Positions 2,575 through 55,300 of a stretch of DNA of 64,000 nt are shown piece by piece (the first letter of the stretch is position 1; each line of letters starts with the position of its first letter). The translations under genes were made by a program, and so were the position numbers. Source of the stretch: a virus (Duplodnaviria > Caudoviricetes); IMG/VR virus record IMGVR_UViG_3300030095_005132, positions 1 through 64,000 of that record. One strand, written 5' to 3'. The notes beneath the pieces are model-generated. The model had not been told where the DNA came from. It did not search any database and saw nothing but the letters and a program-made list of their open reading frames with translations.

Positions 2575-3003
2575 ATGTTTAAGAACAACAAAGGATTTAC
2601 ATTAATCGAATTAATTATGGTAACGATTATAATGGGTGTTCTAGCAGCAGTAGCTATCCCAAGATATATGAATACAGTAGTAAAGGCTGAAGAGGCCGCA
2701 GAAGATGCTGTAATCGGAGCTATCGAAGCTGGATTGAGTAACTATGCTGTAGAACAGATGATAGATAATGGTCGTAAAAGTTGGCCTACTCATCCATTTG
2801 AAGGATTGGAAGTAGTGCCTGTTGGTTACACTACAGATACAGATGATGCCGATACCGATGGTGAGTGGACATTTAACACCACGAACAATACCATTACTCA
2901 TCAAAGAAATGACAATTCACGAGTAAAGTGGGTATATGATAAGGGTGTTCAAACTGGTGATAACGCAGCAGTTGGTTCTATTAGCGCTAGGTCAAACTTA
3001 TAG
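2575..3003 (+). CDS. Type IV pilin (prepilin N-methylation motif)
   Basis: KG|FTLIELIMVTIIMGVLAAVAIPRY. Confidence 0.92.
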   Translation: MFKNNKGFTLIELIMVTIIMGVLAAVAIPRYMNTVVKAEEAAEDAVIGAIEAGLSNYAVEQMIDNGRKSWPTHPFEGLEVVPVGYTTDTDDADTDGEWTFNTTNNTITHQRNDNSRVKWVYDKGVQTGDNAAVGSISARSNL

Positions 3004-3014
3004 GGGAAGCTTCT

Positions 3015-3458
3015 ATGAAGAACTCAGCCGGGTTTACATTAGTTGAGGTAGTAGTGGCTATTGCATTGATGGGGATATTGATAGGAACCAGTGTCCCCAT
3101 TTACAATAATGTGATTACTAAAACTCAAATATCTGTTAACACATCTAATATGATAATTATAAAAGATACGTTTATGAGATATTTTAATGAAACTTACATG
3201 GACGGTAACCCGCAGCTACCAACATTACCACAAAACGCTTTATTAGATTCAACATATAATAATACAGAATTGTCAGATGGTAGAACACCAAATAATTTAT
3301 TTAATGGTGGATTACCTTTTAATTCTAATGGTAATCCTTATACTTATTATTGGGAAGCTGATACAAGCTCAAGTGGATTTATAACAAAAAAATTCTACAT
3401 AGAAGATTTAGATACGGACAGCCCTTCTTATGGAGAATTTGTAGTAGGAGAGATATGA
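3015..3458 (+). CDS. Type IV pilin-like protein
   Basis: AG|FTLVEVVVAIALMGILIGTSVPIY. Confidence 0.9.
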   Translation: MKNSAGFTLVEVVVAIALMGILIGTSVPIYNNVITKTQISVNTSNMIIIKDTFMRYFNETYMDGNPQLPTLPQNALLDSTYNNTELSDGRTPNNLFNGGLPFNSNGNPYTYYWEADTSSSGFITKKFYIEDLDTDSPSYGEFVVGEI

Positions 3459-3856
3459 TGCGAGGATACACATTAATAGAAATGCTAATAGTAATACTAT
3501 TGATAGGTATCCTCTCAACACAAGCAATACCAAGATATATGGAAAGAATAGCTTTAGAAGAATTAAAATCAGAAAAAAAATTTACATATCAGATATTTCA
3601 AGAATTGGAATTGTATGCAGAATATCAAAAGGAAAATACAGGAACAGAGAGTTGGCCAAGTAATCCATTATCTGTTTTAGGTCGTACAAGAGGTGTTATA
3701 GTTACAACTTCATTAGGAATACCTGATGAGGATAATGAGTGGCAATTTGATGGAACTAAACTATACCATAGGAGAATGAATAATGAAATTTGGTACTTTA
3801 TTTATAATGCTAGTACATTTTCATTTTCAGAAACTCCTGTTAAATTAACAAACTAA
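3455..3856 (+). CDS. Type IV pilin-like protein
   Basis: RG|YTLIEMLIVILLIGILSTQAIPRY; C-terminal WPSNP...DNEWQFD...HRRMNN resembles 2575..3003 (WPTHP...DGEWTFN...HQRNDN). Confidence 0.9.
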   Translation: MMRGYTLIEMLIVILLIGILSTQAIPRYMERIALEELKSEKKFTYQIFQELELYAEYQKENTGTESWPSNPLSVLGRTRGVIVTTSLGIPDEDNEWQFDGTKLYHRRMNNEIWYFIYNASTFSFSETPVKLTN

Positions 3857-4394: not shown

Positions 4395-4750
4395 GATACT
4401 TACCTTTATTATTAATAAGTGTTATATTAGGACAAGATTCAACTGATGTTGAGTTGGATTTAGATGCTATGTGGGAAAATACCGTATGGGAAGAAATCCA
4501 AGATGTTACAGATGTTTATTATGAAGTGGAGTATGTTACAGCAGTTGCTGGTGTTCGTGGAGCAGAAGCTGAAGATGAGGCTCTAGCATTATTATATTAT
4601 AGAAAAAGCATGAAAGGATTATCCAGATTAGATTTACAAAAAGCTTTGGGTAAGCTTATTATCAAACGTGAGAAGATGTCTGATGATAGTGATACAAAAA
4701 AAATAGATGGTTATATTTTACAATTAAGAAGAAAATTAAAAAAAGTGTAA
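4391..4750 (+). CDS. Secreted hypothetical protein
   Basis: Signal peptide, SD AGGAG, TAVAGVRGAE motif. Confidence 0.6.
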   Translation: MRYLPLLLISVILGQDSTDVELDLDAMWENTVWEEIQDVTDVYYEVEYVTAVAGVRGAEAEDEALALLYYRKSMKGLSRLDLQKALGKLIIKREKMSDDSDTKKIDGYILQLRRKLKKV

Positions 4751-4756
4751 AAAAAA

Positions 4757-4790
4757 TTGTATTTGAGAATATATACATATATATATTAAT
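4757..4790 (+). promoter_or_regulatory. Class-3 promoter motif (TTGTAT...ATATATATTA)
   Basis: Same arrangement upstream of tRNA-Gly (20813-20846) and at 44371-44405; 3' part also before hsp20 (13580-13591). Confidence 0.45.
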
Positions 4791-4823
4791 GTATCAAATA
4801 CGATACAAATGTTTTTTGACAAT

Positions 4824-5240
4824 TTGAAAATTTGAAAAGTGCAGAGAGTAATTAACTCTGTATGGGATTGGTCGAATAATGAGTAGATGATGAAGCTCAT
4901 AAGACAATCTATCGAGAAGTTGTGGTGACTAACCTACCGCCTAATGTGGTGGTCATAAAAAACGGTTTCAAGACATATGACTCGAAATGTACTTTCAGAA
5001 ACTAAACGTTGATTCGTTGACCTTTTTATGGGTAAGGGTAAAACCGAAATCCCATCTTGTGGCTGAATAATTTAGTCTCAGAGAGATAAGGCAATATCAC
5101 AGACATTGTAGTCGCTCTAACGTAGAATTAACCATCTATTAGGAGAACCAGTATAACTTCTGGGTGATAGGTAAAAGGTAATAAAAATCTGAGCTGAAAG
5201 TTGTAGGTATTCAATAATCCTACATCCCCCTAATTTTCAA
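4824..5240 (+). ncRNA. Large structured ncRNA candidate (~417 nt), family unidentified
   Basis: No ORF; closing stem TTGAAAATT(4824)/AATTTTCAA(5232) and many nested helices; upstream promoter motif and downstream terminator. Confidence 0.7.
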
Positions 5241-5248
5241 TATTATAT

Positions 5249-5320
5249 AAAAAGGGTTCAACCGATTTTTAGTTTCCACTATACTTTAAACTTAAAAAAC
5301 TACAGAACCCTTTTTTTATT
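5249..5320 (+). terminator. Terminator-like long hairpin
   Basis: AAAAAGGGTTC ... GAACCCTTTTTTT. Confidence 0.55.
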
Positions 5321-5331
5321 TAAAAAAAACC

Positions 5332-5361
5332 TTGACTCGTATTGCAATTCTTTTGTATCTT
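5332..5361 (+). promoter_or_regulatory. Early sigma70-type promoter (copy 1 of 8)
   Basis: TTGACT-N18-TATCTT with conserved spacer yGTATTGCA. Confidence 0.7.
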
Positions 5362-5366
5362 CTTGT

Positions 5367-5504
5367 ATGATGAGAGAGACTTTAAGAATGATTTTGTTGA
5401 TGTTTGTTTTAATAACGGACAATGCTAGTTTCTTAAATCTTAAAAAAAATCAAAAAAAATTAAAAAAAGACTTGACTTGTATTACATTTAATGTGTATAT
5501 TTAG
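5367..5504 (+). CDS. Possible leaderless small ORF (45 aa)
   Basis: ATG 5 nt after -10 box; MMRETLRMILLMFVLITDNASF... Confidence 0.3.
   Translation: MMRETLRMILLMFVLITDNASFLNLKKNQKKLKKDLTCITFNVYI
5472..5501 (+). promoter_or_regulatory. Early sigma70-type promoter (copy 2)
   Basis: TTGACT-N18-TATATT. Confidence 0.75.
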
Positions 5505-5506
5505 GT

Positions 5507-7618
5507 ATGAAAAAAAGGGAAAATATGAAAGAAAAACTTAAAAACTTTAACCCGATGGCTCTCAGAGAGAAATACTCTGCTAGTAACATCACTAACAATT
5601 ATTCTTCCTTTTGGAGTGATAATGATGTTAGAAGAACTTCTATCTTTGATGAAGATGAGCCTGTTAAGAAGGGTGTTGATTTAGTTGCACTGGCTTCTTA
5701 TCGTAGAGCTATCAGTAACTTTGTTTCTATCGTAACTGGCAAATCTGATATAAAAGTTACCTTTAATGCGCACGGAGATAGTTATACCGATGGTAAATCA
5801 GTTGTTATATCTTCTAAATTAGATGATAAGTTATTTGATTCAACTGTTGGTTTGGCTCTTCATGAAGGTAGTCACATTAAACTTTCAGATTTTGATTTTC
5901 TAAAACAACTCAGAAATAATATTCCACAAGAATATGTTAGGAGAGCTGAAGTATTTGGTTGGAGCGAGTATGATGTAAAAGATAAAGTTAAAAACTTACT
6001 TAACTATGTTGAGGATAGACGAATTGATTATTTTGTCTTTTCAAATTCACCAGGCTACAAAGGTTATTATCATTCAATGTATGATAAGTACTTTCATTCT
6101 AAGATTATCGATAAGGCTTTAGTTACTGATGAATATACTGATAATGATTGGGATTCATACATTTTCAGAATCATTAACCTTACTAATAAAAATTCTAACT
6201 TAGACGCTCTACCAGGTCTCAGAGAAATTCACTCCCTTATTTTTAAGAATGTAAAAAATCTTAATTCTACAAAAGATGCTTTTGATGTCGCTCTTAAAAT
6301 ATTTCATATTATATTAGATAATGTAGATGTTAAACCTGCTGCTACTGATAATGAAAATAAAGATGGTCAGGAATCATCTGATGAGAAAGAATCTAATGAG
6401 AGTCAAAGTGCTAGTGATGGTGATGGTAATGGTGGTGAGGGTTCTGAGTCAATCTCTGATGAAGAATTGGATGATATGATTGAAAGTGGTCTTACAGAGG
6501 GTAATGGTAGTGGTGATAAAAAAGTTGAACTTACTCCTAATCAGAAAAAACAACTTGAAAACGCCATAAAGAAACAAAATAAGTTTATGGATGGTGATAT
6601 TCAGAAGAAGAAACTTTCTAAAAAAGATAAATCTTCAATAGATACCGTTGAAGCTGCGGGTATGAGTTATGTTGATGTTGCTGGTGCTACTGATACTTAT
6701 ACCGGTAAAAAAATTCCTACTAAAGTATTAATGGTTAAGAAATTCAACAAAGCTTTGGCTGAATCTGGCACTATCCGTATGATTCAAAATCCGGAATACA
6801 GATGGCACTCAGATGAATACAATGAAGCCATCAATAAAGGTTTAGTGATGGGAACTATCTTAGGTAAGAAACTTCAGGTGCGTGGTGAGACTCGTGAGAC
6901 TAAGTGGTCTCGTTTAGATAGTGGTCGTATTGATAAGAGATTAGTTGCTGAGCTTGGGTTTGGTAATGAGAGAGTTTTCAAAACCACTTTTGTAGAATCT
7001 TATTCAGATGCTTTTCTTCACATTTCTGTTGACGCCTCTGGTTCAATGGGTGGGGATAAGTGGACAAATACTCAGACTTCTGTTGCTGCGATAGCTAAGG
7101 CTTGTTCAATGATTCAAAATGTTGATTTGGTTATTTCTTACAGAAGTACACAGGACTCACAAAATGGTAGAGGTAAAGGAACTTACAGTCCACTAATGTT
7201 GATTGCTTATGATTCCAGAGTTGATAAGATTTCAAAGATTAAGAATCTGTTTCATCTACTTCAACCATCAGGTACCACACCAGAAGGTTTATGTTTTGAG
7301 GCTGTGATGAAGGAAATCGAAATGAGTTCTAATGATAAAGATTCTTACTTTCTAAATTTTTCTGATGGGATGCCAATGTTTCAAAATGATGATGTGAGTT
7401 ATTATCATGACACCGCTATTAATCACACCGCTAAAATGGTTAAAGACATTCGTAATCGTGGTGTTAAGGTTCTTAGTTACTTTATCGGTGGTAGATATGA
7501 TTATCGTGATGAAAAACAAACATTCACAAAAATGTATGGTAAGGGAGCTGCTTTCGTTGATGTAACTTCGGTACTGGCTGTTGCTAAAACAATGAACAAA
7601 CTATTCTTGGAGAAATAA
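5507..7618 (+). CDS. CobT-like protein: N-terminal HExxH metallopeptidase-like domain + C-terminal VWA domain
   Basis: ALHEGSH, NYVEDRRID, acidic linker, MIDAS VDASGSM, GTTP, FSDGMP; SD-led start at 5525. Confidence 0.85.
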   Translation: MKKRENMKEKLKNFNPMALREKYSASNITNNYSSFWSDNDVRRTSIFDEDEPVKKGVDLVALASYRRAISNFVSIVTGKSDIKVTFNAHGDSYTDGKSVVISSKLDDKLFDSTVGLALHEGSHIKLSDFDFLKQLRNNIPQEYVRRAEVFGWSEYDVKDKVKNLLNYVEDRRIDYFVFSNSPGYKGYYHSMYDKYFHSKIIDKALVTDEYTDNDWDSYIFRIINLTNKNSNLDALPGLREIHSLIFKNVKNLNSTKDAFDVALKIFHIILDNVDVKPAATDNENKDGQESSDEKESNESQSASDGDGNGGEGSESISDEELDDMIESGLTEGNGSGDKKVELTPNQKKQLENAIKKQNKFMDGDIQKKKLSKKDKSSIDTVEAAGMSYVDVAGATDTYTGKKIPTKVLMVKKFNKALAESGTIRMIQNPEYRWHSDEYNEAINKGLVMGTILGKKLQVRGETRETKWSRLDSGRIDKRLVAELGFGNERVFKTTFVESYSDAFLHISVDASGSMGGDKWTNTQTSVAAIAKACSMIQNVDLVISYRSTQDSQNGRGKGTYSPLMLIAYDSRVDKISKIKNLFHLLQPSGTTPEGLCFEAVMKEIEMSSNDKDSYFLNFSDGMPMFQNDDVSYYHDTAINHTAKMVKDIRNRGVKVLSYFIGGRYDYRDEKQTFTKMYGKGAAFVDVTSVLAVAKTMNKLFLEK

Positions 7619-19563: not shown

Positions 19564-19965
19564 GGGGCTGTCATGGTTTCGACAGGTGTTTTTTGAAAAT
19601 AAAGTGCAACGGAGATTGAGTAGGTCTCGCTAAAAAAGACTCAACAAACTCAAATGGCGATAATTCGCTAGACGGGTTGGTCATTGATTGGCACCTAGCT
19701 GAGTATGATTACTCACCTATGGTTGCTGTCACTAATGACGAACCAACTTACGCTTACGCTTAAGTTACTGAGTTGTCTAACACTCGGTCATAAAATAAGT
19801 TAGACACCAACTCCTCATGTTATGAGTATAAAAGAACATACGGATCTATCCAAGAAAATAGTTGGTGTGTTGCAGGTACTGTCTCAGAGGGTTGGAACCT
19901 GATAAGTTGTGAATGACTTTTTTGATAAGACAGACTGGACAGGGGTTCGATTCCCCTCAGCTCCA
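19564..19965 (+). ncRNA. ssrA: tmRNA
   Basis: 5' GGGGCTGTCATGGTTTCGAC; 3' T-arm AGGGGTTCGATTCCCCT and CAGCTCCA giving Ala acceptor with G3.U70; internal tag ORF ending YAYA-stop; CCA not encoded. Confidence 0.93.
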
Positions 19966-19983
19966 CAAAATTAAGGAAATAAA

Positions 19984-20394: not shown

Positions 20395-20402
20395 AAAAAA
20401 CC

Positions 20403-20794: not shown

Positions 20795-20846
20795 AATAAA
20801 ATAAAAATAAAATTGTATTTCAGGTTATATATAGATATATATTATT

Positions 20847-20918
20847 GCGGAGGAAGTGTTATAGGAAACACACTTCCTTTCCAAGGAAGAGATGTTGGTT
20901 CGACTCCAATCCTCCGCT
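20847..20918 (+). tRNA. tRNA-Gly (anticodon TCC)
   Basis: Acceptor GCGGAGG/CCTCCGC, D stem GTGT/ACAC, anticodon arm CTTCC-TTTCCAA-GGAAG, T loop TTCGACT, U73; CCA not encoded. Confidence 0.92.
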
Positions 20919-34027: not shown

Positions 34028-34342
34028 ATGCCATACACACAAGAGGAATTAAAAAACCTATCATTTTATCAAAATTTAATTGATGAGGATGAACAACAAT
34101 ACCTACAGAGAAGAGATTTGCTTAGGCTGCAATCCACTATTTCAGGATCAGCTGCTGCAGACAATCTCTTATCTAGAGATAAGGATGGAGCTGTTTTAAT
34201 TTTTGAAAATCCATATAGCGATAGCTTAGTTGAGGATGATTCTTCAAAACTTATTCATAATACTACAGTAAAATTATTGAAAACAACAGCGACTGATACT
34301 ATTATAGATGAGGTATTAGATAGGGATTTTGGGGAGTTATAG
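34028..34342 (+). CDS. Hypothetical protein
   Basis: ORF in structural operon. Confidence 0.6.
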   Translation: MPYTQEELKNLSFYQNLIDEDEQQYLQRRDLLRLQSTISGSAAADNLLSRDKDGAVLIFENPYSDSLVEDDSSKLIHNTTVKLLKTTATDTIIDEVLDRDFGEL

Positions 34343-37300
34343 TGGCTAGTAAATTAACAGAAAAACAAAAACAATTACTTGATGCTAACATTAGTACTAG
34401 AGTAGGTCAAAAGCCTTATGAGGATGGTTTGTGGGGTGAGCAAGGAAATAAAGACTTTGTTCATTTACAATTATTTGACGAAAGTAATAATCTTATAGAA
34501 TTTAAAAGTGTTCCATCTTCAGAATTTGTTATAAACACAGATAATAATAACATTGAATTTTATCCTGGTAGACATATTAGAGAATTGGGATATCAGAGTG
34601 GCGTCTTTAATATAAAATATAACTTTTTAAGAAAATTAGCAGGTGATGAGATGCCTGTGTTGTTACATACAATACAAAAAAATGATACAAAAGTTGGTGA
34701 TGTTTATACCAATATGAATGCAATATATGTAACAGAGGACTCTTTAGTTTATGCTGCTACAGAAGAAGATTATAAAAATAATCCCACCACTACTGAGCAA
34801 TTGTCTATAGAAGATTTAACATATCAAATTGATACTATATCACCAAGCAGAACTGAAGTAAGATTAAAATCTAAAAAAATAAATGGATCGTATCAAGATG
34901 ATTTTATCGATTTACAAACTGCTATAATACTAAAAGAAGTTCAGAATAAGATTAGTTTTATAGGTGGAACGCTGTATGATTCTACACAATTAATTTTAAC
35001 TTTAGAATCTTCTGGATTTTTATTTACGAAAAAAATGGTTGGTGGAACAATCACAATACCTAATGTTTTTCAAGTAAATCAAATTGATGTTCCTGTAAAG
35101 ACAAATATAAATATAGTTCAAAATCCTGCAGGAGATTTAATTGAAACCGATAATCTTGGTAATACATTAAATATTGCAACTCAAAATGAATGGGATGAAA
35201 GTTTACACGATAACGCTATTAGAGCAACACATTGGAGTGATGGGTTTGTTAATCACACAGGCACATTTGCTGGAACAGCACATATAGGTTATCACGCATA
35301 TTGGGTTGCAGAAGAAGGTAAAGGTGGGGGAAGCTGTATAAAATTTACAGATCAAAATGAACTTTTTATAGATTTACCTGAATGGCCTAATGAACAGAGA
35401 TACAGGCCTCTACTGATAACGCAGGAGATAACAAACTTGTTAGGCCAGGGTGTTACTCATAATGATATAGCTAATATAAATTTTGATATAAGAAGTACAG
35501 TTGCTAACAAGGGTGTTGAGATATCTTTAAGATATGCAGACGAAGTTTTGGTTGAAGAACAACCTCAGAATCCTCCCCCTGGATTTTTTGATCCCAGCAA
35601 CCCACAACCAACTGAAACACAACCAACCTCTCCACCAGCTGGTTATGAGCCTGCCGATTCTGCAGCAGCTAATGCTATAGAACAACAACCACCGATGAGC
35701 GAATTTGGTATAAGAGAGTTATATGGTGATTCTGTTCCCGTACCTCTTGATATTGCAGAGGGTGATGACACTACAGTTTGGGGTGGAGCAGGAGCTTGGG
35801 TTGTAACTATATTTCAACCAGAAAGACCAAGTCAAAAATATACTTGGGGTGTTAATACAGATGTTGTAGGTAATATGATGCATGGTGAATTGAGTAATGA
35901 AGAAGAATGGGTTTGGAATGCTTATTCTGAGGTGTGGACTGTTAATCCCAATCTTGCAAATTCTTTGATTGCTCCCGATGGTACAAGTGGTAAACCTAAT
36001 GCAGTTAATTATCATCCTGCTCAAATACAAGGTCAGGGTAGAGCTTATTATGAAAGAACTACCAATCGTGGTCAAAACTTAGGATGGCAAACGATGACAG
36101 TGATTGGTGATGCAAAAGTATTGTTATTCAAAGATGATTTAATTTGGGAACAAAGGCACGATCGAGGTGACTTAGATAAATTTTATTTTTACGAATTTGA
36201 CCAATATTTTCCGGCAGTGCGTAATACTGTTTTAAATGCTGGAACGGATGAAGAAAAAACCTTATATGATGATATCTTTCAGAATGGTTTTATTCAAACT
36301 GTTACAAGGGTTGGTAAGGGTAGAAATGATGGTACATATCATAATATGTTTTTAATATTTTATAATAACGGCGATACAAATGCTAGCGGCCAGATGGATG
36401 AATCGTCAAATAGATTTTTTTACATCACAACCTATGCTGGAACTTTGGATAATAGTGGAACAAATCAAGTACACAGCTATCCTAATCACGAGGGAGTAAG
36501 TACACCTTTACATTTTTTAAAAGATTTCGATGGTGGTGTGAATCAAAATGTTATTTCCAATGAAGGTAAGATGGAGTGGTGGTTTAAAGAAGATGATGGT
36601 TACACTAGGTATTACATAGCCACCGGTACAGAATATTACGCTACCAACGAAGGAGATGATGCTGGAACAGATGGTGGTCTTTATGATAATAGCATTGACA
36701 GTTACTATCCGGCACCATTAGGAGATGGTTTCGGTGATACATTGGCTAATGGTGTCGATTGTGCGGTTGGTCCGGTTGGGGGTTTTGGTAGATATAGATA
36801 TATCATTGGAGATCGTCAATATAGAGCAAAGGGTTCTGCAGCTGATGGTACGGATCGCGATAAATCTTTAAATGATGTTTTTTTCAGATGTGGTGAGGTA
36901 ATAAATCAAAATGGGGATTCTGTAACATTTGGTGTTAGGAATCCATCCGCAACGAACTACGGTGTATTTGGTGATTTTGCTGATGCCGGTGAGCTTACTG
37001 AAGCTGATGTAACACCGGTTTATGACAATGGTTTAGGTGAATATGATTTTCCTGATAATCCTCTTCAGATAGGAGTTCTTAGCGAAGGAGAAAATTGGGT
37101 ATGGGATGGAAGCCAATGGAATGACAATTCTCTTAACCCACCAAGATACAATTATAAATCTCCACCATCAACAAAACAGATACTTGCTCCAGAAATAGCT
37201 GGTGAGTGGATAAATGTGAGTGCTCAAATACCTATACCAAGTGATTGGTTGCTTGGACAAAAATGGTATTTACAAATTTATGGTAGTGGTAAGAGCCAAA

Positions 37301-40300
37301 GTGGGGCTATGGAACAAGGTATAGTATGGGTAGATAATGTATATGTAGATTTTACCCTTAGAGAACAATCACAGACTATACCTGTATATAAATCCTATTC
37401 TGCACAAATACAAAACGTGTCGTCTGATGGATCTATAATCACTGTAAATAAAACCATAAGGGACGTGGCTGTAGAAATAGGAGCAAACGATGATGATGAG
37501 GATGGTAATCCCGATATATATAATCAACCAGAGGTTGGTGATTTTGATGATTTTAGATTATCTTATACGAATTTAAATCCAAGAGATTTAAGAACTTATT
37601 TAAAATTTGAAAATAATTTGTTTTTAACTACAAATTTTAAATCAGATAGAGTTTCTGTAACATCTTTTCCTTATTCCATAGTCTATAAGTTATACGAACC
37701 TCTGCCAGATAATTATGAAAAATTTGATGAATGTATTGTAGTAAAAGAGATGGCAGACCCATTAGAAGAAAAAATTAAAATAATAGATTTTGTTAATGCG
37801 GAAGAACCTAAATTGGTTCTTAAAACTCCTGATTTAAATAATGTAGAAAGTCCGGTTCAAAGAAGGCAGACCAAGTTTCAAACTGAGTCTGAAATTTTAA
37901 CTTCTGATGCAGCTGTTTCTACCGCATTGAGAAGTGAATTTTTAAGTCAAAGTTTAGATAGTGTAAATATAAATACAGACTACTCTAGATTTGAAAATTT
38001 TGTAAACTTTGGTTCAGCTGAAGTTAGGATTAGAAATTTTAAAAGAAAATTAGAAGATATAGAACAATACAAAATCAATAGTGCTTCTTATGCTGGCGTA
38101 AGCGGTTCTTCGGGAGATATGAGCACTTATCATTATAAAATAATTGATACTGAGAATAAATTTGATAGATTTGAAAATTATATGTATTTTAAAAGCTCTT
38201 CTTATGTAAGCAGCTCGATTGGAATATTTCACGACAACGCATGGCCTAAAGCTAGTGGTGATGGAACATTAAACAGTCCTTATGTTTTAGCACATACAAC
38301 ATCATCACAAGCTGATACTTGGTTTGTAAATGCTGTAAATTCTGCATCTTTATATGATGATGACAACTCATCTAAGCTGAGTACTATACTTCCAGAACAT
38401 ATTAAGGTTGATACAAAAAATGATACATACCTAAAATTTATAGATATGATAGGTCAACATTTTGATGGTATATGGGAATATATAAATGCTGTAACCGATG
38501 TTTCAGATAGAAGGGAAAGTTTAGATGAGGGTATTTCAAAAGACTTATTATATTCTGTTGCTAAATCTTTAGGTTGGAATTTAAATGACGGAAAAGATTT
38601 AATTAGCTTATCTAAGTTTGCATTGGGTAAAGAAGTTACCGGCTCCTCTTTTTCTAACTACTCCACAACTTCAGAAAGAGATGTGTCGAGAGAAATTTGG
38701 AGTCGTATAATAAATAACATGCCATTTTTCTTAAAGAATAAGGGTACTGTTAGAGCTTTGAAAGGGTTAATAAATGTTTATGGAATACCATCTACAATTT
38801 TAAGAGTTAAGGAATATGGTGGACCTGATTTATCAGATGATGCTTCTCCTCAGTTTGAAATAACAAGAAAATTTACAAAAGCTTTAGATTTTAAAGGTGC
38901 TCAATATGTAAAGGTTGGGTGGACTGATGATTTAGAATCACAGAGAAAGCCTGATACTGTAGAATTTAGGTTTAGAGCTGCTACCGGTTCAAATCAAATC
39001 CTTGTAGAGAAGCAGGATATTAATAATCAAGATTGGTTCATAAGGTTAAAAGATAATGGTTCATCCGATAACTATGGTCAGGTTTCATTTATGTTATCAG
39101 GCTCTGCTGTTGGACAGGATATCGGTCAGTTTAAAGAAATAACATCAACATCTTTACCTATATATGATGGTGATTTTTATTCTGTTATGGTTGCTAGAAC
39201 ATCTGGAAGTAGCAATACTGCAGTATCACAATCGTACCAATTAAATGTTGGCAAGTATGATGCTAGTAGAAGTAAAATACACTTATATAGTACATCGACT
39301 ATGGATGTAACACAAGCAGCTTCTTCATCTTTTAGTAACGCGTGGACGGGTAGTGGTGATATTTACATCGGTGGTTCTGGTAGTATAGATGATGTTGGTG
39401 TACAATTTAGTGGTTCTATAATGGAATACAGGCATTGGACAGAAACATTAAATACATCATCATTTAAGAATCACATAGCTAATCCAAAAGCTTATGATGG
39501 AAATACTGTGTCATCATCTTATAGCAACTTAGTATTAAGATACTCCTTTAATGATGATAAGGATTTAACTTCTGATGTAGAGGGTATACGAGATGTTAGT
39601 TCAAACCAAACACAAACCGTATCAGGATCTCACAGTGGATTTACAGGAAACTTTTTTAGAAGCGTGGTTGATGAACAGAAAACCCACATACCAAGCATAG
39701 GTGCTTTAAGAAGAACTACGAATAAAATTAGATTAGAAGATAATAAAATAAAGCAAGGATTTAATTTAAATTCAGAACACAGAGCTACTGTAAGTGCTTA
39801 TGATACTGCACCAAGTGACTCTAATAAGGTTGGTATATGGTTTGCGCCAACGGATGTTATCAATACCGACATTATTAACTCAGTTGGTAATTTAAATTTT
39901 GATAATTATTTGGGTGATCCAAGAGATAAACAAGAGCTAAGTTATAGGGGTTTAGAGAATATAGCTGATAATTATTGGAAAAAGTATAACTCACCAAATA
40001 ATTTTTGGGATTACATTAGAATGATTAAATATTACGACCAATCATTGTATCCTCAAATAAGGAAATTAATACCAGCTAGATCAAAACCTGATATTGGGTT
40101 GTTAATTGAGCCAAATATATTTGAGAGACCAAAAGTTATTGTTGGAAAAGAACCAACCGCCGAAGATAGATTTTTTAGTTCTTCTATAAATATACCAAAT
40201 GAGGTTATTATTGTAACTGGTTCTTATAATGCTGGATTTAGTATTAGTGATTATGATTCTTATACTGGAAGAATTGATATATTTAGTTATGATTCTGGCT

Positions 40301-41025
40301 CATCAGTCATATCATCAAGTGGTGAGTATACTACCTATACAGGATCTAATTCTGAAATTAAGGATAGAAATACAGAACTTTCCATATGGCAAAGGTTAGG
40401 TGAGGGTAATTATAAAACCGCATCTATCACACAAGGGGATGTAAAGTATAATGAAGTTTTTCAACCAATAATAACAGGATCTAGAATATATGGTGTAAAT
40501 CAAAAACTTATCCCACTATACTCATCATCATTGAGCGCTTCATTACAAATTGCATATTCATCTTCTTTCTATAATGTGGATACGGATAATTATAATCATT
40601 TGACTCAAGGATTGATTAATTCCTTTTATGCTGGCGTTAAGAATACTAAAAAAACTACTCCGGATAGCCAGCCGCCGATAGAAGTAATCATATCCGCTCC
40701 AACTAAATTGGTAACTACAAAGGATGGGGAGTCTACATTAAAAACTGGAGATGGGGTAATATCAGAGTTCAAAGAGGCAGTTAGTAAAGAAGAAAAAGAA
40801 AATTTAAAAGTAGAAAAACAAACAGGTATAAAGAAGAAGAAAAGAAGAGGTTTGAGAAGTTTGAAGGTTAAACCGGAAACAGATCAAATGAGAAAGAAAA
40901 TGAGAAAAGAGGAACAATTTAAGAAGGAATCGGATTTGGGTGTTATGAAAGAAAGTAGGGCCGGAAAAGAATCGGATGATAAAGATAGTGACGATTCTAA
41001 ATCTAAAATAGATCCTGACAAATAA
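34342..41025 (+). CDS. Large baseplate/tail structural protein with carbohydrate-binding-like insertions and LamG-like region
   Basis: ISPSRTEVRL, FIDMIGQHFD, KNKGTVRALKGLINVYGIP (tail-I/wedge-like), FSGSIMEYRHW. Confidence 0.75.
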   Translation: MASKLTEKQKQLLDANISTRVGQKPYEDGLWGEQGNKDFVHLQLFDESNNLIEFKSVPSSEFVINTDNNNIEFYPGRHIRELGYQSGVFNIKYNFLRKLAGDEMPVLLHTIQKNDTKVGDVYTNMNAIYVTEDSLVYAATEEDYKNNPTTTEQLSIEDLTYQIDTISPSRTEVRLKSKKINGSYQDDFIDLQTAIILKEVQNKISFIGGTLYDSTQLILTLESSGFLFTKKMVGGTITIPNVFQVNQIDVPVKTNINIVQNPAGDLIETDNLGNTLNIATQNEWDESLHDNAIRATHWSDGFVNHTGTFAGTAHIGYHAYWVAEEGKGGGSCIKFTDQNELFIDLPEWPNEQRYRPLLITQEITNLLGQGVTHNDIANINFDIRSTVANKGVEISLRYADEVLVEEQPQNPPPGFFDPSNPQPTETQPTSPPAGYEPADSAAANAIEQQPPMSEFGIRELYGDSVPVPLDIAEGDDTTVWGGAGAWVVTIFQPERPSQKYTWGVNTDVVGNMMHGELSNEEEWVWNAYSEVWTVNPNLANSLIAPDGTSGKPNAVNYHPAQIQGQGRAYYERTTNRGQNLGWQTMTVIGDAKVLLFKDDLIWEQRHDRGDLDKFYFYEFDQYFPAVRNTVLNAGTDEEKTLYDDIFQNGFIQTVTRVGKGRNDGTYHNMFLIFYNNGDTNASGQMDESSNRFFYITTYAGTLDNSGTNQVHSYPNHEGVSTPLHFLKDFDGGVNQNVISNEGKMEWWFKEDDGYTRYYIATGTEYYATNEGDDAGTDGGLYDNSIDSYYPAPLGDGFGDTLANGVDCAVGPVGGFGRYRYIIGDRQYRAKGSAADGTDRDKSLNDVFFRCGEVINQNGDSVTFGVRNPSATNYGVFGDFADAGELTEADVTPVYDNGLGEYDFPDNPLQIGVLSEGENWVWDGSQWNDNSLNPPRYNYKSPPSTKQILAPEIAGEWINVSAQIPIPSDWLLGQKWYLQIYGSGKSQSGAMEQGIVWVDNVYVDFTLREQSQTIPVYKSYSAQIQNVSSDGSIITVNKTIRDVAVEIGANDDDEDGNPDIYNQPEVGDFDDFRLSYTNLNPRDLRTYLKFENNLFLTTNFKSDRVSVTSFPYSIVYKLYEPLPDNYEKFDECIVVKEMADPLEEKIKIIDFVNAEEPKLVLKTPDLNNVESPVQRRQTKFQTESEILTSDAAVSTALRSEFLSQSLDSVNINTDYSRFENFVNFGSAEVRIRNFKRKLEDIEQYKINSASYAGVSGSSGDMSTYHYKIIDTENKFDRFENYMYFKSSSYVSSSIGIFHDNAWPKASGDGTLNSPYVLAHTTSSQADTWFVNAVNSASLYDDDNSSKLSTILPEHIKVDTKNDTYLKFIDMIGQHFDGIWEYINAVTDVSDRRESLDEGISKDLLYSVAKSLGWNLNDGKDLISLSKFALGKEVTGSSFSNYSTTSERDVSREIWSRIINNMPFFLKNKGTVRALKGLINVYGIPSTILRVKEYGGPDLSDDASPQFEITRKFTKALDFKGAQYVKVGWTDDLESQRKPDTVEFRFRAATGSNQILVEKQDINNQDWFIRLKDNGSSDNYGQVSFMLSGSAVGQDIGQFKEITSTSLPIYDGDFYSVMVARTSGSSNTAVSQSYQLNVGKYDASRSKIHLYSTSTMDVTQAASSSFSNAWTGSGDIYIGGSGSIDDVGVQFSGSIMEYRHWTETLNTSSFKNHIANPKAYDGNTVSSSYSNLVLRYSFNDDKDLTSDVEGIRDVSSNQTQTVSGSHSGFTGNFFRSVVDEQKTHIPSIGALRRTTNKIRLEDNKIKQGFNLNSEHRATVSAYDTAPSDSNKVGIWFAPTDVINTDIINSVGNLNFDNYLGDPRDKQELSYRGLENIADNYWKKYNSPNNFWDYIRMIKYYDQSLYPQIRKLIPARSKPDIGLLIEPNIFERPKVIVGKEPTAEDRFFSSSINIPNEVIIVTGSYNAGFSISDYDSYTGRIDIFSYDSGSSVISSSGEYTTYTGSNSEIKDRNTELSIWQRLGEGNYKTASITQGDVKYNEVFQPIITGSRIYGVNQKLIPLYSSSLSASLQIAYSSSFYNVDTDNYNHLTQGLINSFYAGVKNTKKTTPDSQPPIEVIISAPTKLVTTKDGESTLKTGDGVISEFKEAVSKEEKENLKVEKQTGIKKKKRRGLRSLKVKPETDQMRKKMRKEEQFKKESDLGVMKESRAGKESDDKDSDDSKSKIDPDK

Positions 41026-49377: not shown

Positions 49378-52300
49378 ATGATATCAAACAATAGGAAATT
49401 CTTAATGGCAACCGTAAAAAGATTTAATAAATTACTTGGGCTTGAGAATATAGATGTATTAATTGATGAAAGAGACACTTCTAGACACATCATAATTACA
49501 GATATGCCTCAGAGTTTACCTCAAGGTAAAAGTTCATTTCTAATAGAAGTCTCGCCTTATATGAAAGAGGGTGTTGAACTTCAAGTAGATTTTATGGATT
49601 CAGAAGGTAATAGCATATACCTTGAACCAGTTCAAAATTATCTAGAGGGTTCTTCAAGAACTATGTCGGTTGAGATTTATGATACTACAGCTGCTGGTGT
49701 AGCCACTATGATATTGGTTGGTGAATTAGATAGGATACCAACAACTCCAGGAAATTTTAGTGAAACTGAAGAAGTTCCTGTAGATTTTCAAGGTGTGTAT
49801 AATGTAAGACTCACTCGTGAAGTTATTATAAATACAGCAGAATTAAATACTCAACCTATAAAATTTTATTCATCACCAAGACTTATAGCAAATGAGCAAA
49901 GATTTGGAACGATGGAGAGAGAGGTTGTAGAAGGTGAAGTAGCTTCAGCTGCTTTTACTGTCATTGGTAGACCAGTAACCCAACAATCTTATGAGGTATT
50001 TACTACAGAAGAAAATGAATCTAATGCACAAGGTTCTGGTGTTACTGAAACTAATGATAATAAATCTATAAAGCCACCTGATGGTGATGTAAAAGGCGAT
50101 AAAGCAGAAAAAGAAAAATTAAAACAACACACTAAAAAAAGAAGTGTCCGCACAGATAGTAGATTTAAAAGGTCTAGAAGAATTAGGAGAAGAAGGTCTC
50201 CTGTGGAATACCCCTATTCATTTTCTATATCTGATGAAGAGCATGAATTTACTACAAATGAAATTGGAGGAGAAATAAGATTTTCTGATATAGACACCAC
50301 TATATATAACAGCGAAGATTTAACAAACAATGGTTTAGAAACACCCACATTTAATGTGGTGAGTGACACACTTGATGAAAATTTCCCAACACATTATACA
50401 GCCTCTATTGCTGATTTAAATAACAGCCTTACTGCTTATACAAATACACCATTTACAAAACAAGACAGAGAGGGAAATTATAGAATATTAGAATTAAAAG
50501 CTACTGGTCAAACTTTTTATGAAAAACAACCATCTGCTTCCTTTAGTTTAACAAATATAGTTTCTTATGCTGATATAACTTTAAGTCATTTAAGAACATT
50601 TTCAGGAGAATTATTTAAAGCAAAAGTTTATGTTAGAAGTGAGGGTTCTTTTGATGATTATAAATTATTGGCTGAAGTTCCTATAGAATCCCCTGAACTT
50701 ATGATAAACTCAAATTCTGTTGGTATAGGTGAGCGAACAGGTTATTTTATTTCTGAAGAAGATAAAAATACATATTGGGATTTGTTTGGTAGTACTAACG
50801 GATTGACAGCAGCTTCATCAACATCAACAGCTTCTTTTGATAACAACACATTATTAGACTCAATTATGGTTTCAGGAAGTACATCTACATTTTCAGACCA
50901 AATAAGATTTCAATTAAAAGAAGATTATAAATTTGTATTAACAAAGGATATAGATTACACATTGTCTTTCAACACCGTTGGTCAAAAGGATACTGATGGT
51001 AGAGCTTTAATGTTAGTATACATTTCAGGTTCTTGTATGAATCAAGCTAATAGTTTGTACAATGACGAATTTACTGAAATTAATATTGAAGAATCTTCAG
51101 CTTATGGTAAAAGAATGGGTGTATTGGAAGTGGAAACCAGTGATGATGATAGAAAAGATTTTAATTTAGTTAGTCACAATTTTAATACAGATTCAACTGG
51201 TGAGGCAACAATTCAATTCAGAGTAATATCAGGACAATGGAACTTATCTGATATATCTGTAATTCCAGCAACAGACACCGGATTCTCTCCGTCCTTTGTT
51301 AAGTTTCAACAACAATTACCACCTGAATTAACACATAAGAGACCTGAAACATTAGAATTTCTAACAGAATTTTATGATATGAATAATAATTTGGCTGATG
51401 AAATAGCAGTAACAACTGGCTCTATATTCACAGGTGCTAATATGGTTATTACTGGCGATGATAATACAATGAGTGGTGACTTATTTATCGGTGGTGATAC
51501 TACCGGTAGTGGAATGCACTTTGGTGGTGTAGACTCTAACTTGCCAGAAACAGGTACTGATGGTGCTACCGGTTCTGGCTTTATGAGGTCGGTTGGTTAT
51601 TTAGGATTTGCTTCAGCTTCAGATGCATCATTGGATGGTAAACCTGGCTTTATGATTTATAGTGGTTCTGTTTTACCTGATAGTGGTGAAAATTATGCTG
51701 GTGTTGGCTTGGAATTGGTTGGTGCTAGTGGTTCTCTAAAATTTAGAACAAATCCAAGTTTATTTGATGTTCAAGCAGATGCATTTTTTGTAGGTAAAAC
51801 TACAACCCAATTCATAAGTGGTTCAGGAGAAAAGATAGAAATAAGTTCATCAAACTTTCATTTAGATGACGCAGGTAATGTGGATATGACGGGTACTATT
51901 ACTGCTAATGCTGGAGAAGTCGGAGGCTTTACAATAAAGGATAGTAGTCTTAGAGCTGGTACAGGAAACTCATCAGTTACAATGAGTGGCGCAGACCAAT
52001 TAATGAAATTTGGTAGTGGTTCTACATTTACTGCTAGTGAAATAGATGGAATACTTTTTGGTAAAGATACGGATGGTAAGTATAAATTTGGTGTTGGTAA
52101 GGGCGGCTCTTATGTATTTTTTGATGGTGATGCTGTACAAATAGCCTCAGAAGATATCAATGTAACTGCTTCAGTTTTCTCTATTGATGTGGATGAATTT
52201 AAGTTAAGTGCTACAAATTTATTTGTAAGTTCTAGTGAAGGTGGTTTTGTATCTCTTGGAAACCCAAGACCATCTGGTATAGGTGGTACTAATAATGGTA

Positions 52301-55300
52301 TATTTATGCAGGGTAGAAATCCAGACGATACCAAACCTAAGTTCTTAGCAGGTAATGCAGCTGGCGGTCATATATCATTCGATGGTGATAATGTTTTTAT
52401 GTCATCTTCTGCTTTCTTCTTAGGCTCACCATCTCAATTTGTAAGTGGTTCTTTGGGTAATGTAGAAATAAGCTCATCAAATTTTCATTTGGATAATGCT
52501 GGTAATGTAATAATGAGTGGTAAGATTACTGCTAATGAAGGTGCGATTGGTGGTTTTAATATAACAGATGATGCATTATCTTCTACAAACTTTTTTATAA
52601 GTGGTAGTCCAACTGCTGGTGGAGATGATACTCCCGAACATATGTTTATTAGTGCTTCTAATTTTAATGTTAAGGCTAGTGGTGATGTTACTGCATCTGC
52701 TCTTTCATTAACTGGAGGTGATGTAGGTGGTTTATCTGTAGAAAGTGGAGTTATATCAGTAGGCTCTATTCTAAAATTAAAAGATAGTGGTCAAATAACT
52801 GGTTCAAAAGTATTATTTAGTGGTGGTACAATTGGCGGCTTTACTGTAAATGGTGGAGCAGGTCAGAGTAGTTTAATTGGTAAAACGAGTGATCCAGCTG
52901 AAAGATTTAGACTGGATTTGCTGAGTGGAGAATTGCAAGTAGAAGGAAATGATGGTTTTGGAATAACTTTAGGCGGCGATGCTTCTAGTGGTTATGAAGC
53001 AACAACTGACACTAGTATACCAATAGTTTTAGCTACTACAGAAGATGCTAGTAGGACTGTTGTTAGATTTGGTGATTCGGGTCAGTTCTTTAAATTTGAT
53101 TCTGGCGCAACGCCAAAATTAACTATTAGCTCAAGTGATTACTTTCTTGGCACATCTACTACTTTTATAAGTGGTTCTAACGGAAATATTAAAGTTAGTG
53201 GAAGTAATTTAGAATTAGAAACACCAAAGTTTTTCTTAGGTAGAAAGGGTAATCAATTTGTAAGTGGTTCTAATGGTAATGTAGAGATAAGTTCATCGGA
53301 TTTTCATTTAACTGCGCAAGGAGATGTAACTGCTTCTGCTATATTGTTAGGCGACAAGGATGGTAGTAATTTTTTACAATTTGCTGGTGATACTTTAACT
53401 GTAAGAGGAGATTTAGCAGTTGATTCATTATTCTTACCATCAACTATAGATGGTGCAACATCAACAGCCGTAAACGCTTCTTCATCTTTAGATTCAAATG
53501 GTTTTGCTAAATTCGTATCAGCCTCCATCGGTGGATTTATAGTAAATTCATCACAAATAAATTCCGTAAATAATAATATAGTCTTACAATCCAATGGTGC
53601 GGCTACGATAAGTGGTAGCTCTGTAAATTTACAAGCTCCTATATTTTATTTAGGAAACCAAACAAATTTCATAAGCGGCAGTAATGGAAATATAGAAATA
53701 TTCAATAGTGGTGCAACCACAATAAGTGGTAGTTCTGTAAATGTTCAAACTCCAAAGTTTTATTTAGGGGAAACTGATAATTTTATAAGTGGTAGTAATG
53801 GGAATATAGAAATATTTAATACAGGAACTACAACTATTAGTGGAAGTGCGGTAAATATTCAAACACCTAAATTTTATTTAGGAGAAACTGGTCAATTTAT
53901 AAGTGGTAGTAATGGAAATATTGAGATAAGTTCTTCTAATTTTCATTTAGATAGTGCTGGTAACGTTGTTATGTCAGGTAAAGTAACCGCTGATACAGGA
54001 GAAATAGGTGGATTTACAATAGGAGATGATTTAGATTCTACAGCCGGTACATTAAAATTAAAAGGAGCTAGTGGACAAATAACAGCATCAGCTGCTCAGA
54101 TAACCGGTAAGATAACCGCTCAAACAGGAACTATTGGTGGGTTCAACATCGGAACAGATTTAGATTCATCTGCTGGTACATTAAAATTAAAAGGAGCAAC
54201 AGGACAGATTACTGCTTCAGCTGCTCAAATTACAGGTAAGATTACAGCTACAAGTGGGCAAATTGCTGACTTTACAATTGACGGAACAAAACTAAAACAA
54301 GGAACAGCATTTCATTTAGATGGGGCTTCCAGTGCTGAATACTTTATATCATCTTCCGACTTTCAAGTTACCCCAGCTGGACAACTTACAGGTTCAAGCG
54401 CTTTATTTGACGGAACAATAGATGTAACCGGTACAGGAACAATAGCTGGTTGGACTATAGCTTCGGGAAGATTTAATGATTCCGGAGATAATCTTAGACT
54501 CGATGGTGATGAAAGTCAGATATCAGTAAAAAATCATACTTTTGGTCAAGCTGGTATTCAGTTACAATATAATAGTGGAACTACAAGAATGTATGTTGGT
54601 GATGGTGCCAATAAACATTTAAAATTTGATGGTTCTGATGTTGATATAAAATCTGCTAAATTTGAATTGGATGCTACTAATTTAGAATTATCATCAACAC
54701 ACGCTTCAATGAGTTTGGGTGAAGGTAAGATTAGATTAGTTGGTGCTTCCACATCAACAATCACAGTTGGTGCTGCTAACGCAATAAAACTATCGGATGA
54801 TGGTAGTGACAGATTTTTAGTTGTAGGAAGTAAAACTTCGTTTACACATTTTGACCAATCTACTGCTGGTTTAATATTAGGAACTGATAATGGAACTACA
54901 AAGTTTGAGTTAGCAGCCGATGCAAATAATTACATATCGTTTGATGGTTCTGCTTTTGATATTAAAACTGAAGTTTTTACTTTAGATACCACAAATTTAG
55001 ATATAAATTCATCCACAAAAAGAATTGAGGTTTCAGATGGTAGTAATGTAAGGGTTAGAATAGGTGAGGTTGATTCTACTTCAGCTAATCATTTTGGTAT
55101 AACAATATATGATGGAACCGGTACAGCAGCTTCAGATGAGATAGTTCATCTTAGTGATGCTAAAAATCAAATAGCTAGTTGGTCTTTAAGTCCTAATCAG
55201 ATTTCAAGTAATAATTTAATATTAGATTCAGATGGAACTATACAAACAGCAGATTTTGCTAGTAATGTAAAGGGTTGGAGAATAACATCAGCAAATAATG

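Follow-up and report, generated by a model that had tools for sequence, protein, structure and literature searches.

The first 64,000 nucleotides (nt) of the IMG/VR virus record IMGVR_UViG_3300030095_005132 (Caudoviricetes), referred to here as the window and belonging to a 94-kb record judged to be approximately half complete, contain a gap at 4751-5506, between the stop codon of a 119-residue open reading frame (ORF) at 4750 and the ATG of the next listed gene at 5507, which raises the question of what this stretch encodes. A preliminary description made from the letters alone saw in it an ORF-free region with a large and ornate structured RNA that has its own promoter, leader, and terminator, either of the GOLLD/ROOL kind or of a new class. 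The gap has indeed no ORF longer than 54 residues, with short ones of 37-54 residues plus a 45-residue ORF at 5367-5504. The evidence points to 4757-5317 being an independent phage gene whose product is a structured non-coding RNA, an enlarged and doubled member of the manA family, a reading to which a probability of roughly 0.72 is assigned. As regards its class, the RNA is not new but a member of the manA family, in an enlarged doubled form.

The family was assigned with Rfam, which at gathering thresholds returned three matches over the entire window, namely a full-length tmRNA at 19564-19968 (93.6 bits; tag peptide ending in ...PTYAYA), a tRNA-Gly (UCC) at 20847-20918, both in agreement with ARAGORN, and manA (RF01745) at 5027-5228. 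The manA match scores 65.9 bits against a gathering score of 55.2, with an E-value of 1.5e-14 over model positions 1-192, and two relatives with the same architecture score 64.7 bits (L002) and 67.7 bits (G001). Besides manA, no Rfam family exceeded 18.4 bits within 4600-5600 at E-values up to 10 and none reached its gathering score; the preliminary description was correct for this region in seeing no RNase P, signal recognition particle, or tmRNA signature. It had also named a strong Rfam hit as the outcome that would remove the novelty while confirming the RNA, and the manA match is this outcome in a mild form. The proposal of a new class falls, as 5027-5228 lies over the gathering score of manA and the 5' half is weakly manA-like.

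Relatives were collected by two IMG/VR pattern scans with motifs of the 5' half, which gave 27 and 57 stretches. The 58 places obtained, including the window, less five cut by contig ends and 18 duplicates, left 35 distinct full-length copies on marine virus contigs, 63-92% identical to the window where measured. RNAalifold folded these copies into 89 pairs, 44 of them with compensatory change, and the working structure, which omits one invariant helix and adds the crossing pair 5077/5188, is composed of 91 pairs in 16 helices. It has 98.6% of cells paired compared with 85.8% in column shuffles and 32-45% with slid partners; both sides change in 46 of the 91 pairs, compared with 29.9 in shuffles, and neither the count of 46 nor the covariation score of 0.423 (0.169 shuffled) is reached by any of 500 shuffles. 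The omitted helix, GAUU 5011/AAUC 5186, is invariant and clashes with the covarying pseudoknot, and was dropped also because its G and A belong to a covarying loop pair. Structure beyond chance rests on this covariation, which is decisive, while the single-sequence folding energy is mildly unusual (z -1.88, matched by 4 of 100 shuffles) and by itself counts against the reading. The core at 4824-5240 is a closed, covarying fold with a pseudoknot, and its parts and flanking signals are the following.

4757-4788, + strand: promoter motif TTGTAT-N17-TATATA(TATTA), a 32-nt pattern with one other match at 20813-20844.
4791-4806, + strand: leader hairpin GUAUC-AAAUAC-GAUAC, read from the sequence, at the predicted 5' end.
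4811-4822, + strand: leader motif GUUUUUUGA(C/A)AA, with 7 invariant and several near-invariant columns in the 35 copies, just 5' of the closing helix.
4824-4832, + strand: 5' strand of closing helix H1, pairing with 5232-5240 (TTGAAAATT/AATTTTCAA).
4841-4861, + strand: hairpin A' (GCAGAG...CUCUGU), 3 of 8 pairs covarying, aligned to manA model positions 1-16; the presumed counterpart of manA P1 in the outer copy.
4864-4868, + strand: GGGAU, candidate 5' side of the manA pseudoknot, aligned to GGGaG of the model; partner UCCC at 5225-5228.
4865-4910, + strand: hairpin C' with a GAAUAA/UAAG internal loop, two pairs covarying and the apical 6 bp invariant, aligned to CUGAAUAA...UAAgG.
4912-4985, + strand: domain D', a multi-stem junction with closing helix UCGAG/CUCGA, 5 of 5 pairs covarying.
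Hairpins of D': 4918-4930 with a GUGGU(G) loop aligned to the GUGGUG loop of the model, a variable middle, and a GACA-loop hairpin.
4991-4998, + strand: 5' strand of helix H5 (ACUUUCAG), pairing with 5194-5201; 5 of 8 pairs covarying, 99.3% of cells paired.
5005-5018, + strand: hairpin Y (AACG-UUGAUU-CGUU), whose loop UUGA at 5009-5012 pairs with 5211-5214.
5020-5026, + strand: 5' strand of helix H6 (ACCUUUU), pairing with 5173-5179 and enclosing the inner core; 3 of 6 pairs covarying, 99.0% of cells paired.
5027-5228, + strand: Rfam manA match, with inner hairpin A, GAAUAA hairpin C, junction D (to ~5170), the 3' strands of H6 and H5, hairpin F, and the 3' side of the pseudoknot.
5077-5082, + strand: 5' side of pseudoknot pk2, CUCAGA in the loop of hairpin C, pairing with UCUGAG at 5188-5193.
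5202-5224, + strand: hairpin F (UGUAGG...CCUACA) with loop UAUUCAAUAAU, 2 of 6 pairs covarying, aligned to the GGUA...AAUCC hairpin of the model.
5232-5240, + strand: 3' strand of closing helix H1, AAUUUUCAA, from the single-copy duplex test.
5254-5310, + strand, with T-run 5311-5317: terminator GGGUUC...GAACCC with conserved apical part UUUUUAGUUUCCAC...AAACUUAAAAA.

Much of what had been seen in the single sequence is conserved among the homologs from marine viromes, where the covariation check had been suggested. The large, ornate RNA with its closing helix stands: MAFFT misaligns this helix, so copies were examined singly, and a closing duplex of differing sequences is present in 31 of the 31 copies analysed (four of the 35, lacking the anchor match, were left out), at -6.0 to -13.6 kcal/mol compared with shuffled means of -2.0 to -4.8. 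The crossing pair CTCAGA 5077/TCTGAG 5188 is likewise the pseudoknot that it had been taken for, with 100% of cells paired and two pairs changed on both sides in 10 sequences each (CUUAG/CUAAG, CUUGG/CCAAG, CUCUG/CAGAG). Among the 13 complementary pairs described earlier, 11 belong to the conserved structure: TTGAAAATT/AATTTTCAA, GCAGAG/CTCTGT, GATTG-TC/GA-CAATC around ATGAG/CTCAT, TCGAG/CTCGA, ACTTTCAG/CTGAAAGT (5 of 8 pairs covarying), ACCTTTT/AAAAGGT, ATGGG/CCCAT, TATCAC/GTGATA, CCAG/CTGG, TGTAGG/CCTACA, and CTCAGA/TCTGAG. The remaining two are not conserved when judged by eye, GTCATA/TATGAC being replaced in relatives by the short GACA-loop hairpin, and GGCTGAA/TTTAGTC having no complement in relatives, where the stretch is the GAAUAA internal loop. 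The middle part of D' differs even among copies that are 92-94% identical overall. Within 5027-5228, helices 8-10 and 12-15 covary, and the long-range helices 4991/5194 and 5020/5173, which join both halves, covary as well.

These results make it very improbable that the likeness to manA arose by chance in a new RNA class, or that the element is not an RNA but protein-coding sequence or a DNA-level element. The former would suit an Rfam score only ~11 bits over the cut-off where canonical viral copies reach 122-197 bits, and the latter the ORFs of 37-54 residues on the minus strand, but the match extends over the full-length model at an E-value of 1.5e-14 and is repeated in two relatives, no coding or DNA-site model predicts compensatory change in 46 of 91 pairs, and contigs from RNA libraries cover the element.

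Canonical manA RNAs were taken for comparison from a pattern scan that gave at least 120 virus stretches, of which 20 were scanned and 19 had manA. All 19 are single and compact, 186-204 nt long and scoring 122-197 bits, and the core of the enlarged RNA, at ~390-417 nt, is about twice as long. It shares with manA a P1-type hairpin, the GAAUAA/UAAG internal-loop hairpin, a three-hairpin junction closed by a 6-bp helix, a last hairpin with a GGUA...AAUCC-type loop followed by UCCC, complementary loops in the E and F hairpins, and its occurrence in marine phage DNA. It differs in its greater length and lower score (65.9 compared with 122-197 bits), in having two C and D modules, in an E stem that holds a nested manA-like core within an extra helix, in the additional pseudoknot 5077/5188, the outer closing helix, and the conserved leader, and in having a tRNA-type promoter and a terminator of its own instead of a position in a 5' untranslated region (UTR).

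The proposed doubling can be followed in the individual parts. The GAAUAA/UAAG hairpin of manA is present twice, at 5061-5093 and 4865-4910, with covarying stems; the three-hairpin junction is present as an inner copy at 5094-5170, which covaries and has UAACCA, and as an outer copy at 4912-4985 with GUGGU(G), the GUGGUG and ACCA loop types of manA being divided between the two. The last hairpin of manA corresponds to 5202-5224, the loop of which is complementary to the loop of the E-type hairpin. The E hairpin is absent as a simple hairpin; a covarying stem of 8 bp (4991/5194) and the apical hairpin 5005-5018 occupy the corresponding places, with a domain of ~160 nt between them, and these are read as the manA E element with an insertion, so that H5 would be the counterpart of the 7-bp E stem and hairpin Y that of the 4-bp apical E hairpin. 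The stem of hairpin Y varies among copies (AACG/CGUU, AAGAA/UUCUU, CAGAA/UUCUG, by eye).

The proposed architecture would thus be one manA within another. The outer skeleton would hold the manA parts in order, with A' at 4841-4861, GGGA at 4864, C' at 4865-4910, D' at 4912-4985, the E stem 4991/5194 with apical hairpin Y at 5005-5018, F at 5202-5224, and UCCC at 5225, while a second partial core (A, C, and D at 5027-5170, inside helix 5020/5173) would be inserted in the 3' side of the E-stem internal loop. The Rfam alignment itself fits this arrangement: in the match at 5027-5228, the 5' strands of the pseudoknot and of the E stem are deleted and both 3' partners are aligned, with 5194-5201 placed on the 3' strand of the E stem of the model, and upstream partners for both deleted strands are found, GGGAU at 4864 and ACUUUCAG at 4991. 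The two deletions are explained if A-D of the model were matched to the inner copy and E-G to the outer one. Since the strands wanting in the inner match are precisely those found in the 5' part, the 3' half does not by itself make up a complete manA. A nested duplication of manA is therefore graded as likely from the sequences, and not higher because the reciprocal model described below missed canonical copies and the 5'-domain scores lie under the cut-off. Among the papers that literature searches on manA listed, none has a title or abstract opening that describes a doubled or nested form; supplementary material may hold one.

Several observations weigh against the doubled form. The 5' domain is weakly manA-scoring, at 15-22 bits where the gathering score is 55.2; scanned alone, it has manA as its top Rfam family in three of three copies, all far under that score (window, 15.4 bits, E 0.043; L044, 22.2 bits, E 3.8e-4; L023, 16.0 bits, E 0.027). 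In the reciprocal direction, R1, a covariance model of the 5' domain made with the 35 copies, missed all 19 canonical manA RNAs at E-values up to 10; on the canonical copy L089, with filters off, it gave no in-register alignment. The pairing GGGA/UCCC is complementary and in the right places, but it competes with the base of helix C', and its bases are invariant in the 35 copies and so show no covariation; canonical copies carry GGGAG...CUCCC, and the available text of the discoverers' report labels the GGGaG...CuCCC pairing "pseudoknot?" (PMC2864571). The failure of R1, the low 5'-domain scores, and a 1001-nt scan with no manA match in the 5' domain at E-values up to 10 would all suit a fusion, in which one manA, the 3' half, is joined to an unrelated 5' module of ~200 nt sharing short motifs with it (GAAUAA/UAAG, GUGGUG). 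Such a fusion is nevertheless quite unlikely, as manA is the top family for the 5' domain in each of the three copies with the parts in one order, all three alignments following the model through a hairpin, AUGGGA, the GAAUAA...UAAG hairpin, the junction closing helix, an A, and the GUGGUG-loop hairpin; moreover, the 5' part supplies exactly the strands wanting in the inner match, and the covarying H5 and H6 link both halves.

Besides its proposed nested fold, the enlarged manA has the signals of a separate transcription unit. The 32-nt promoter pattern matches only 4757-4788 and 20813-20844, two sites nearly identical over the 32 nt, the latter directly 5' of the tRNA-Gly gene, with 0 matches expected, which upholds the earlier claim of a promoter of its own common to that gene, and the pair looks like a promoter class for the stable RNA genes of the phage. 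The promoter spacing and the first base of the tRNA place the predicted transcription start at ~4791-4793. The leader hairpin that would follow differs in several relatives (GUC-UUUCGG-GAC, GUCC-AUUA-GGAC), and others are without one, as judged by eye. TTGACA at 4816-4821 was also considered as a -35 box and rejected, as there is no usable -10 at 16-18 nt and a start there would cost the 5' strand of the closing helix. A promoter-like repeat (A-run, TTGACT, 18 nt, TATCTT or TATATT) is present at 5332 and 5472, flanking the 45-residue ORF at 5367-5504, and also occurs at 20400 and, several per locus, before other genes of relatives.

The layout of the 5' end resembles that of rRNA-operon leaders, with their boxA antitermination site and RNase III processing stem, in its promoter, hairpin, conserved U-rich motif, and covarying stem joining both flanks, with contigs that stop just inside, and differs in that the stem is here 9 bp and A/U-rich. 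The leader sequence TGTTTTTTGACAA, which had been likened to the rRNA antitermination boxA, is strongly conserved and may be a boxA-like site. A 12-mer, GUUUUUUGAAAA, which is the leader motif with A for C, lies inside the tmRNA at 19588 and is followed by AAAGUGCA as at 4836-4843.

The terminator claimed earlier is likewise present as the hairpin at 5254-5310 with the T-run at 5311-5317, and was missed by a simple scan owing to the length of its loop. By script, 26 of 34 distinct copies have a hairpin and T-run within ~80-150 nt of the RNA, and a few more have one when judged by eye. Its outer stems vary (GGGUUC, GGCCA, GAGAACCC, GGUGGUGAGG, CCCCGG), and a second group of relatives has another conserved terminator hairpin (GGUGGUGAGG...). 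The conserved hairpins, of the apical UUUUUAGUUUCCAC...AAACUUAAAAA type or the GGUGGUGAGG type, could be more than a terminator. In four relatives, L023 (~4530-4680), L036, L037, and L061, an extra stretch lies between the RNA and the terminator, with ~70 nt conserved (…GAUGAGAAGGGUGUUAUUGUAUUCCCUAAC…) and a different insertion in L061; in L065, a tRNA-like sequence was seen by eye at ~3590-3670, 3' of the terminal hairpin of the RNA.

Expression was followed in RNA libraries. Of the words sampled from a 1.5-kb stretch, 14-20% are found in each of six runs, and 4841-5230 is covered by contigs of four RNA runs from three studies. The contigs of run X15 span 4874-5055 and 5026-5212 with 0 differences, those of X16 span 4842-5000 and 5060-5230, that of X17, from a third study, extends over 4972-5358 and beyond, and X19 has a single contig of 391 nt at 4841-5230, a variant from a study other than that of the two runs of one study that cover the element piecewise with 0-1 differences. 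The contig ends 4841/4842 and 5230 recur in two studies without loose ends, which is a weak hint of a mature RNA without the leader and the closing helix; because contigs stop there in two studies, the leader and the covarying closing helix may have a part in folding or in trimming the ends. No RNA contig was found on 4400-4543, 4604-4840, or 5522-5900, contig gaps being no evidence of silence, and the short RNA pieces at 4544-4585 are loose-ended and come from other sequences. Two features of these data weaken the case for an independent gene, namely that the X17 contig passes the terminator to 5358 and that RNA contigs reveal no strand, level, or true ends. On the proposed mechanism, the RNA would be a stable product made during infection, like the tRNA and tmRNA of the phage, and not a messenger leader.

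The main rival is a cis-regulatory role for the downstream gene, in which the RNA would be a leader of the riboswitch or attenuator kind, with the sensing of a ligand or protein controlling read-through of 5254-5317 into the genes that follow. The discoverers of manA put it forward as a candidate riboswitch located in 5' UTRs (Weinberg et al. 2010, PMC2864571). The downstream genes at 53 loci are a gp32-like gene followed by UvsX in 44, a CobT-like gene in five, all in the clade of the window, and others in four; the gp32-like gene (phrog_1192) is thus within the first two ORFs that follow the RNA at 44 of the 53 loci, though the upstream genes of relatives fall into more than 10 clusters, which could mean a cis role and counts against a stand-alone gene. 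The same order of RNA, gp32-like gene, and UvsX may, in turn, have been inherited among related phages, and the RNA precedes different genes by clade. In the window, it lies 5' of the CobT-like gene, and in G001, it lies 4 kb 3' of it; only one of the 14 loci found via the CobT-like protein carries the RNA at the gathering score, so the RNA is not tied to that gene.

The conservation of the apical part of the terminator under differing outer stems goes beyond the need of a plain terminator and, together with the single contig that reads on to 5358, would also suit attenuation. Against it, no alternative pairing between core and terminator was found, and the core is closed by its own helix. The promoter is the same as that of the tRNA gene, and the next gene has promoter-like sites of its own at 5332 and 5472. 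Canonical manA RNAs bear on this point too, as in three of the 19 a tRNA gene, not a messenger, follows on the same strand after 7-49 nt (L106, 2878-3155; L078, 344-627; L089, 3525-3834), which fits a cluster of stable RNAs better than a messenger leader. A leader function is, on balance, unlikely for this RNA, and a gene of its own for an enlarged manA remains the preferred account.

In 34 of 35 copies, the Y loop (NNGA) is complementary to the F loop (UCNN), and the pair occurs in four states: ACGA/UCGU in 19 copies, GCGA/UCGC in 10, AUGA/UCAU in three, and UUGA/UCAA in two. They covary as a 4-bp loop-loop pair, with 99.3% of cells paired compared with 13-51% for slid partners and 17 cells changed on both sides compared with 4.1 in shuffles. 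Similarly, in the canonical manA copies compared, the loop of the E hairpin (ACUGUA) is complementary to that of the F hairpin (CACAGG). Where GUGGUG would stand in the first junction hairpin, the inner copy has RUUGUA. The GUGGUG and ACCA loops change jointly in five sequences (AUAGUG, AACAC), where 4-bp complementarity needs a register shift and the sequences are possibly of one lineage.

According to the available text of a preprint of July 2026, manA RNAs shorter than 200 nt self-assemble in vitro into RNA-only decamers and a 60-mer icosahedral cage made from pentamers, the pentamers being held by L5-L7' and L8-L9' kissing loops, with an L6 GNRA contact in addition in one variant (10.64898/2026.07.01.735769). 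If the GAAA loop of the Rfam consensus is L6, then by counting, L5 would be GUGGUG, L7 ACCA, and L8/L9 the E and F loops. The Y-F pair would accordingly stand at the L8-L9 place, with an L5-type loop in the outer copy and ACCA in the inner. The enlarged RNA thus resembles the assembling manA in its covarying loops at the L8/L9 place and in having GUGGUG- and ACCA-type loops, and differs in that its L5-type and ACCA loops are in different copies and in its length, the constructs of that work being shorter than 200 nt (10.64898/2026.07.01.735769). Two points temper an assembling form, namely that the mapping of L5-L9 comes from the Rfam consensus and not from the figures of the preprint, and that the covariation of Y and F fits an intramolecular and an intermolecular contact alike.

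By analogy with canonical manA, the RNA would probably act as a compact particle, its GUGGUG, ACCA, and Y/F loops joining either the two halves or separate molecules, and it is probably not a riboswitch but a stable RNA that may self-assemble. A joint reading that goes further is doubtful. In it, a single natural RNA chain would contain two subunits, with the GUGGUG and ACCA loops split between the cores and the L8-L9-type pair kept, forming an RNA-only shell or oligomer of a geometry unlike the 60-mer and decamers of short manA RNAs; the tRNA-type promoter would give high output in infection, and an rRNA-like leader of hairpin, boxA-like motif, and processing stem would protect the RNA and trim it to 4841-5230.

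GOLLD and ROOL are large, multi-domain, non-coding phage RNAs found near tRNA and tmRNA genes and forming RNA-only assemblies. The enlarged manA is like these RNAs and OLE in being large, multi-domain, non-coding, and phage-encoded, in lying near tRNA and tmRNA genes, and in that it may assemble; at ~400 nt, it is under the sizes of GOLLD and ROOL, from which the Rfam scan and its size set it apart. GOLLD, ROOL, OLE, and HEARO, so far as they are in the library, count as unmatched in the Rfam scans because no family other than manA exceeded 18.4 bits in 4600-5600. The early assignment to the GOLLD/ROOL kind was hence apt in spirit, given the self-assembly that the available preprint text reports for manA (10.64898/2026.07.01.735769), and did not hold as to family, neither GOLLD nor ROOL being matched.

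All long ORFs of the window lie on the + strand, and the phage is a myovirus, encoding a baseplate wedge protein, a CobS-like ATPase, and an SbcC/gp46-like nuclease. The gene 3' of the gap, starting at 5507, encodes the CobT-like protein of 703 residues (phrog_5298). Among cultured phages, the wedge protein is closest to that of Microcystis phage Mel-JY01, at 50% identity, with those of Flavobacterium phages next at 40%. Nucleotide searches of cultured phages gave no match for the element in distant mode or for the first 20 kb in near mode, and Mel-JY01 itself gave no manA match at E-values up to 1. In cellular genomes, 13 stretches matched the hairpin pattern, of which 12 matched R1 at E-values up to 1, 11 of these 12 over the hairpin positions alone; with R1 scores of at most 22.2 bits compared with 121.2 for the window, they were read as chance hairpins and hence give no clue to the host. 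Elsewhere in the window, three adjacent ORFs of 142, 147, and 133 residues (2575-3856) have PHROG matches limited to their first 30-60 residues, including "pilin" phrog_3433, and may carry type IV pilin-like N-terminal segments. There are also two very long + strand ORFs, of 2227 residues (34342-41025) and 3393 residues (49378-59559).

The manA RNA has stood for fifteen years among the orphan riboswitch candidates. The available text of the preprint reports its cages in vitro without a biological setting (10.64898/2026.07.01.735769), and this clade of marine myoviruses supplies one. A doubled manA that has a gene of its own, served by a tRNA-type promoter and a terminator, and that is found in metatranscriptome assemblies, speaks against the leader model for this clade. 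The manA family now spans short single cores and a nested double core, a series in which changing RNA quaternary interfaces can be studied, and the covarying loop pair 5009-5012/5211-5214 is a direct handle on intramolecular as opposed to intermolecular contact. Should the joint two-subunit reading be true, it would be the first evidence for manA assemblies as phage-made products acting in infection, and not as messenger leaders.

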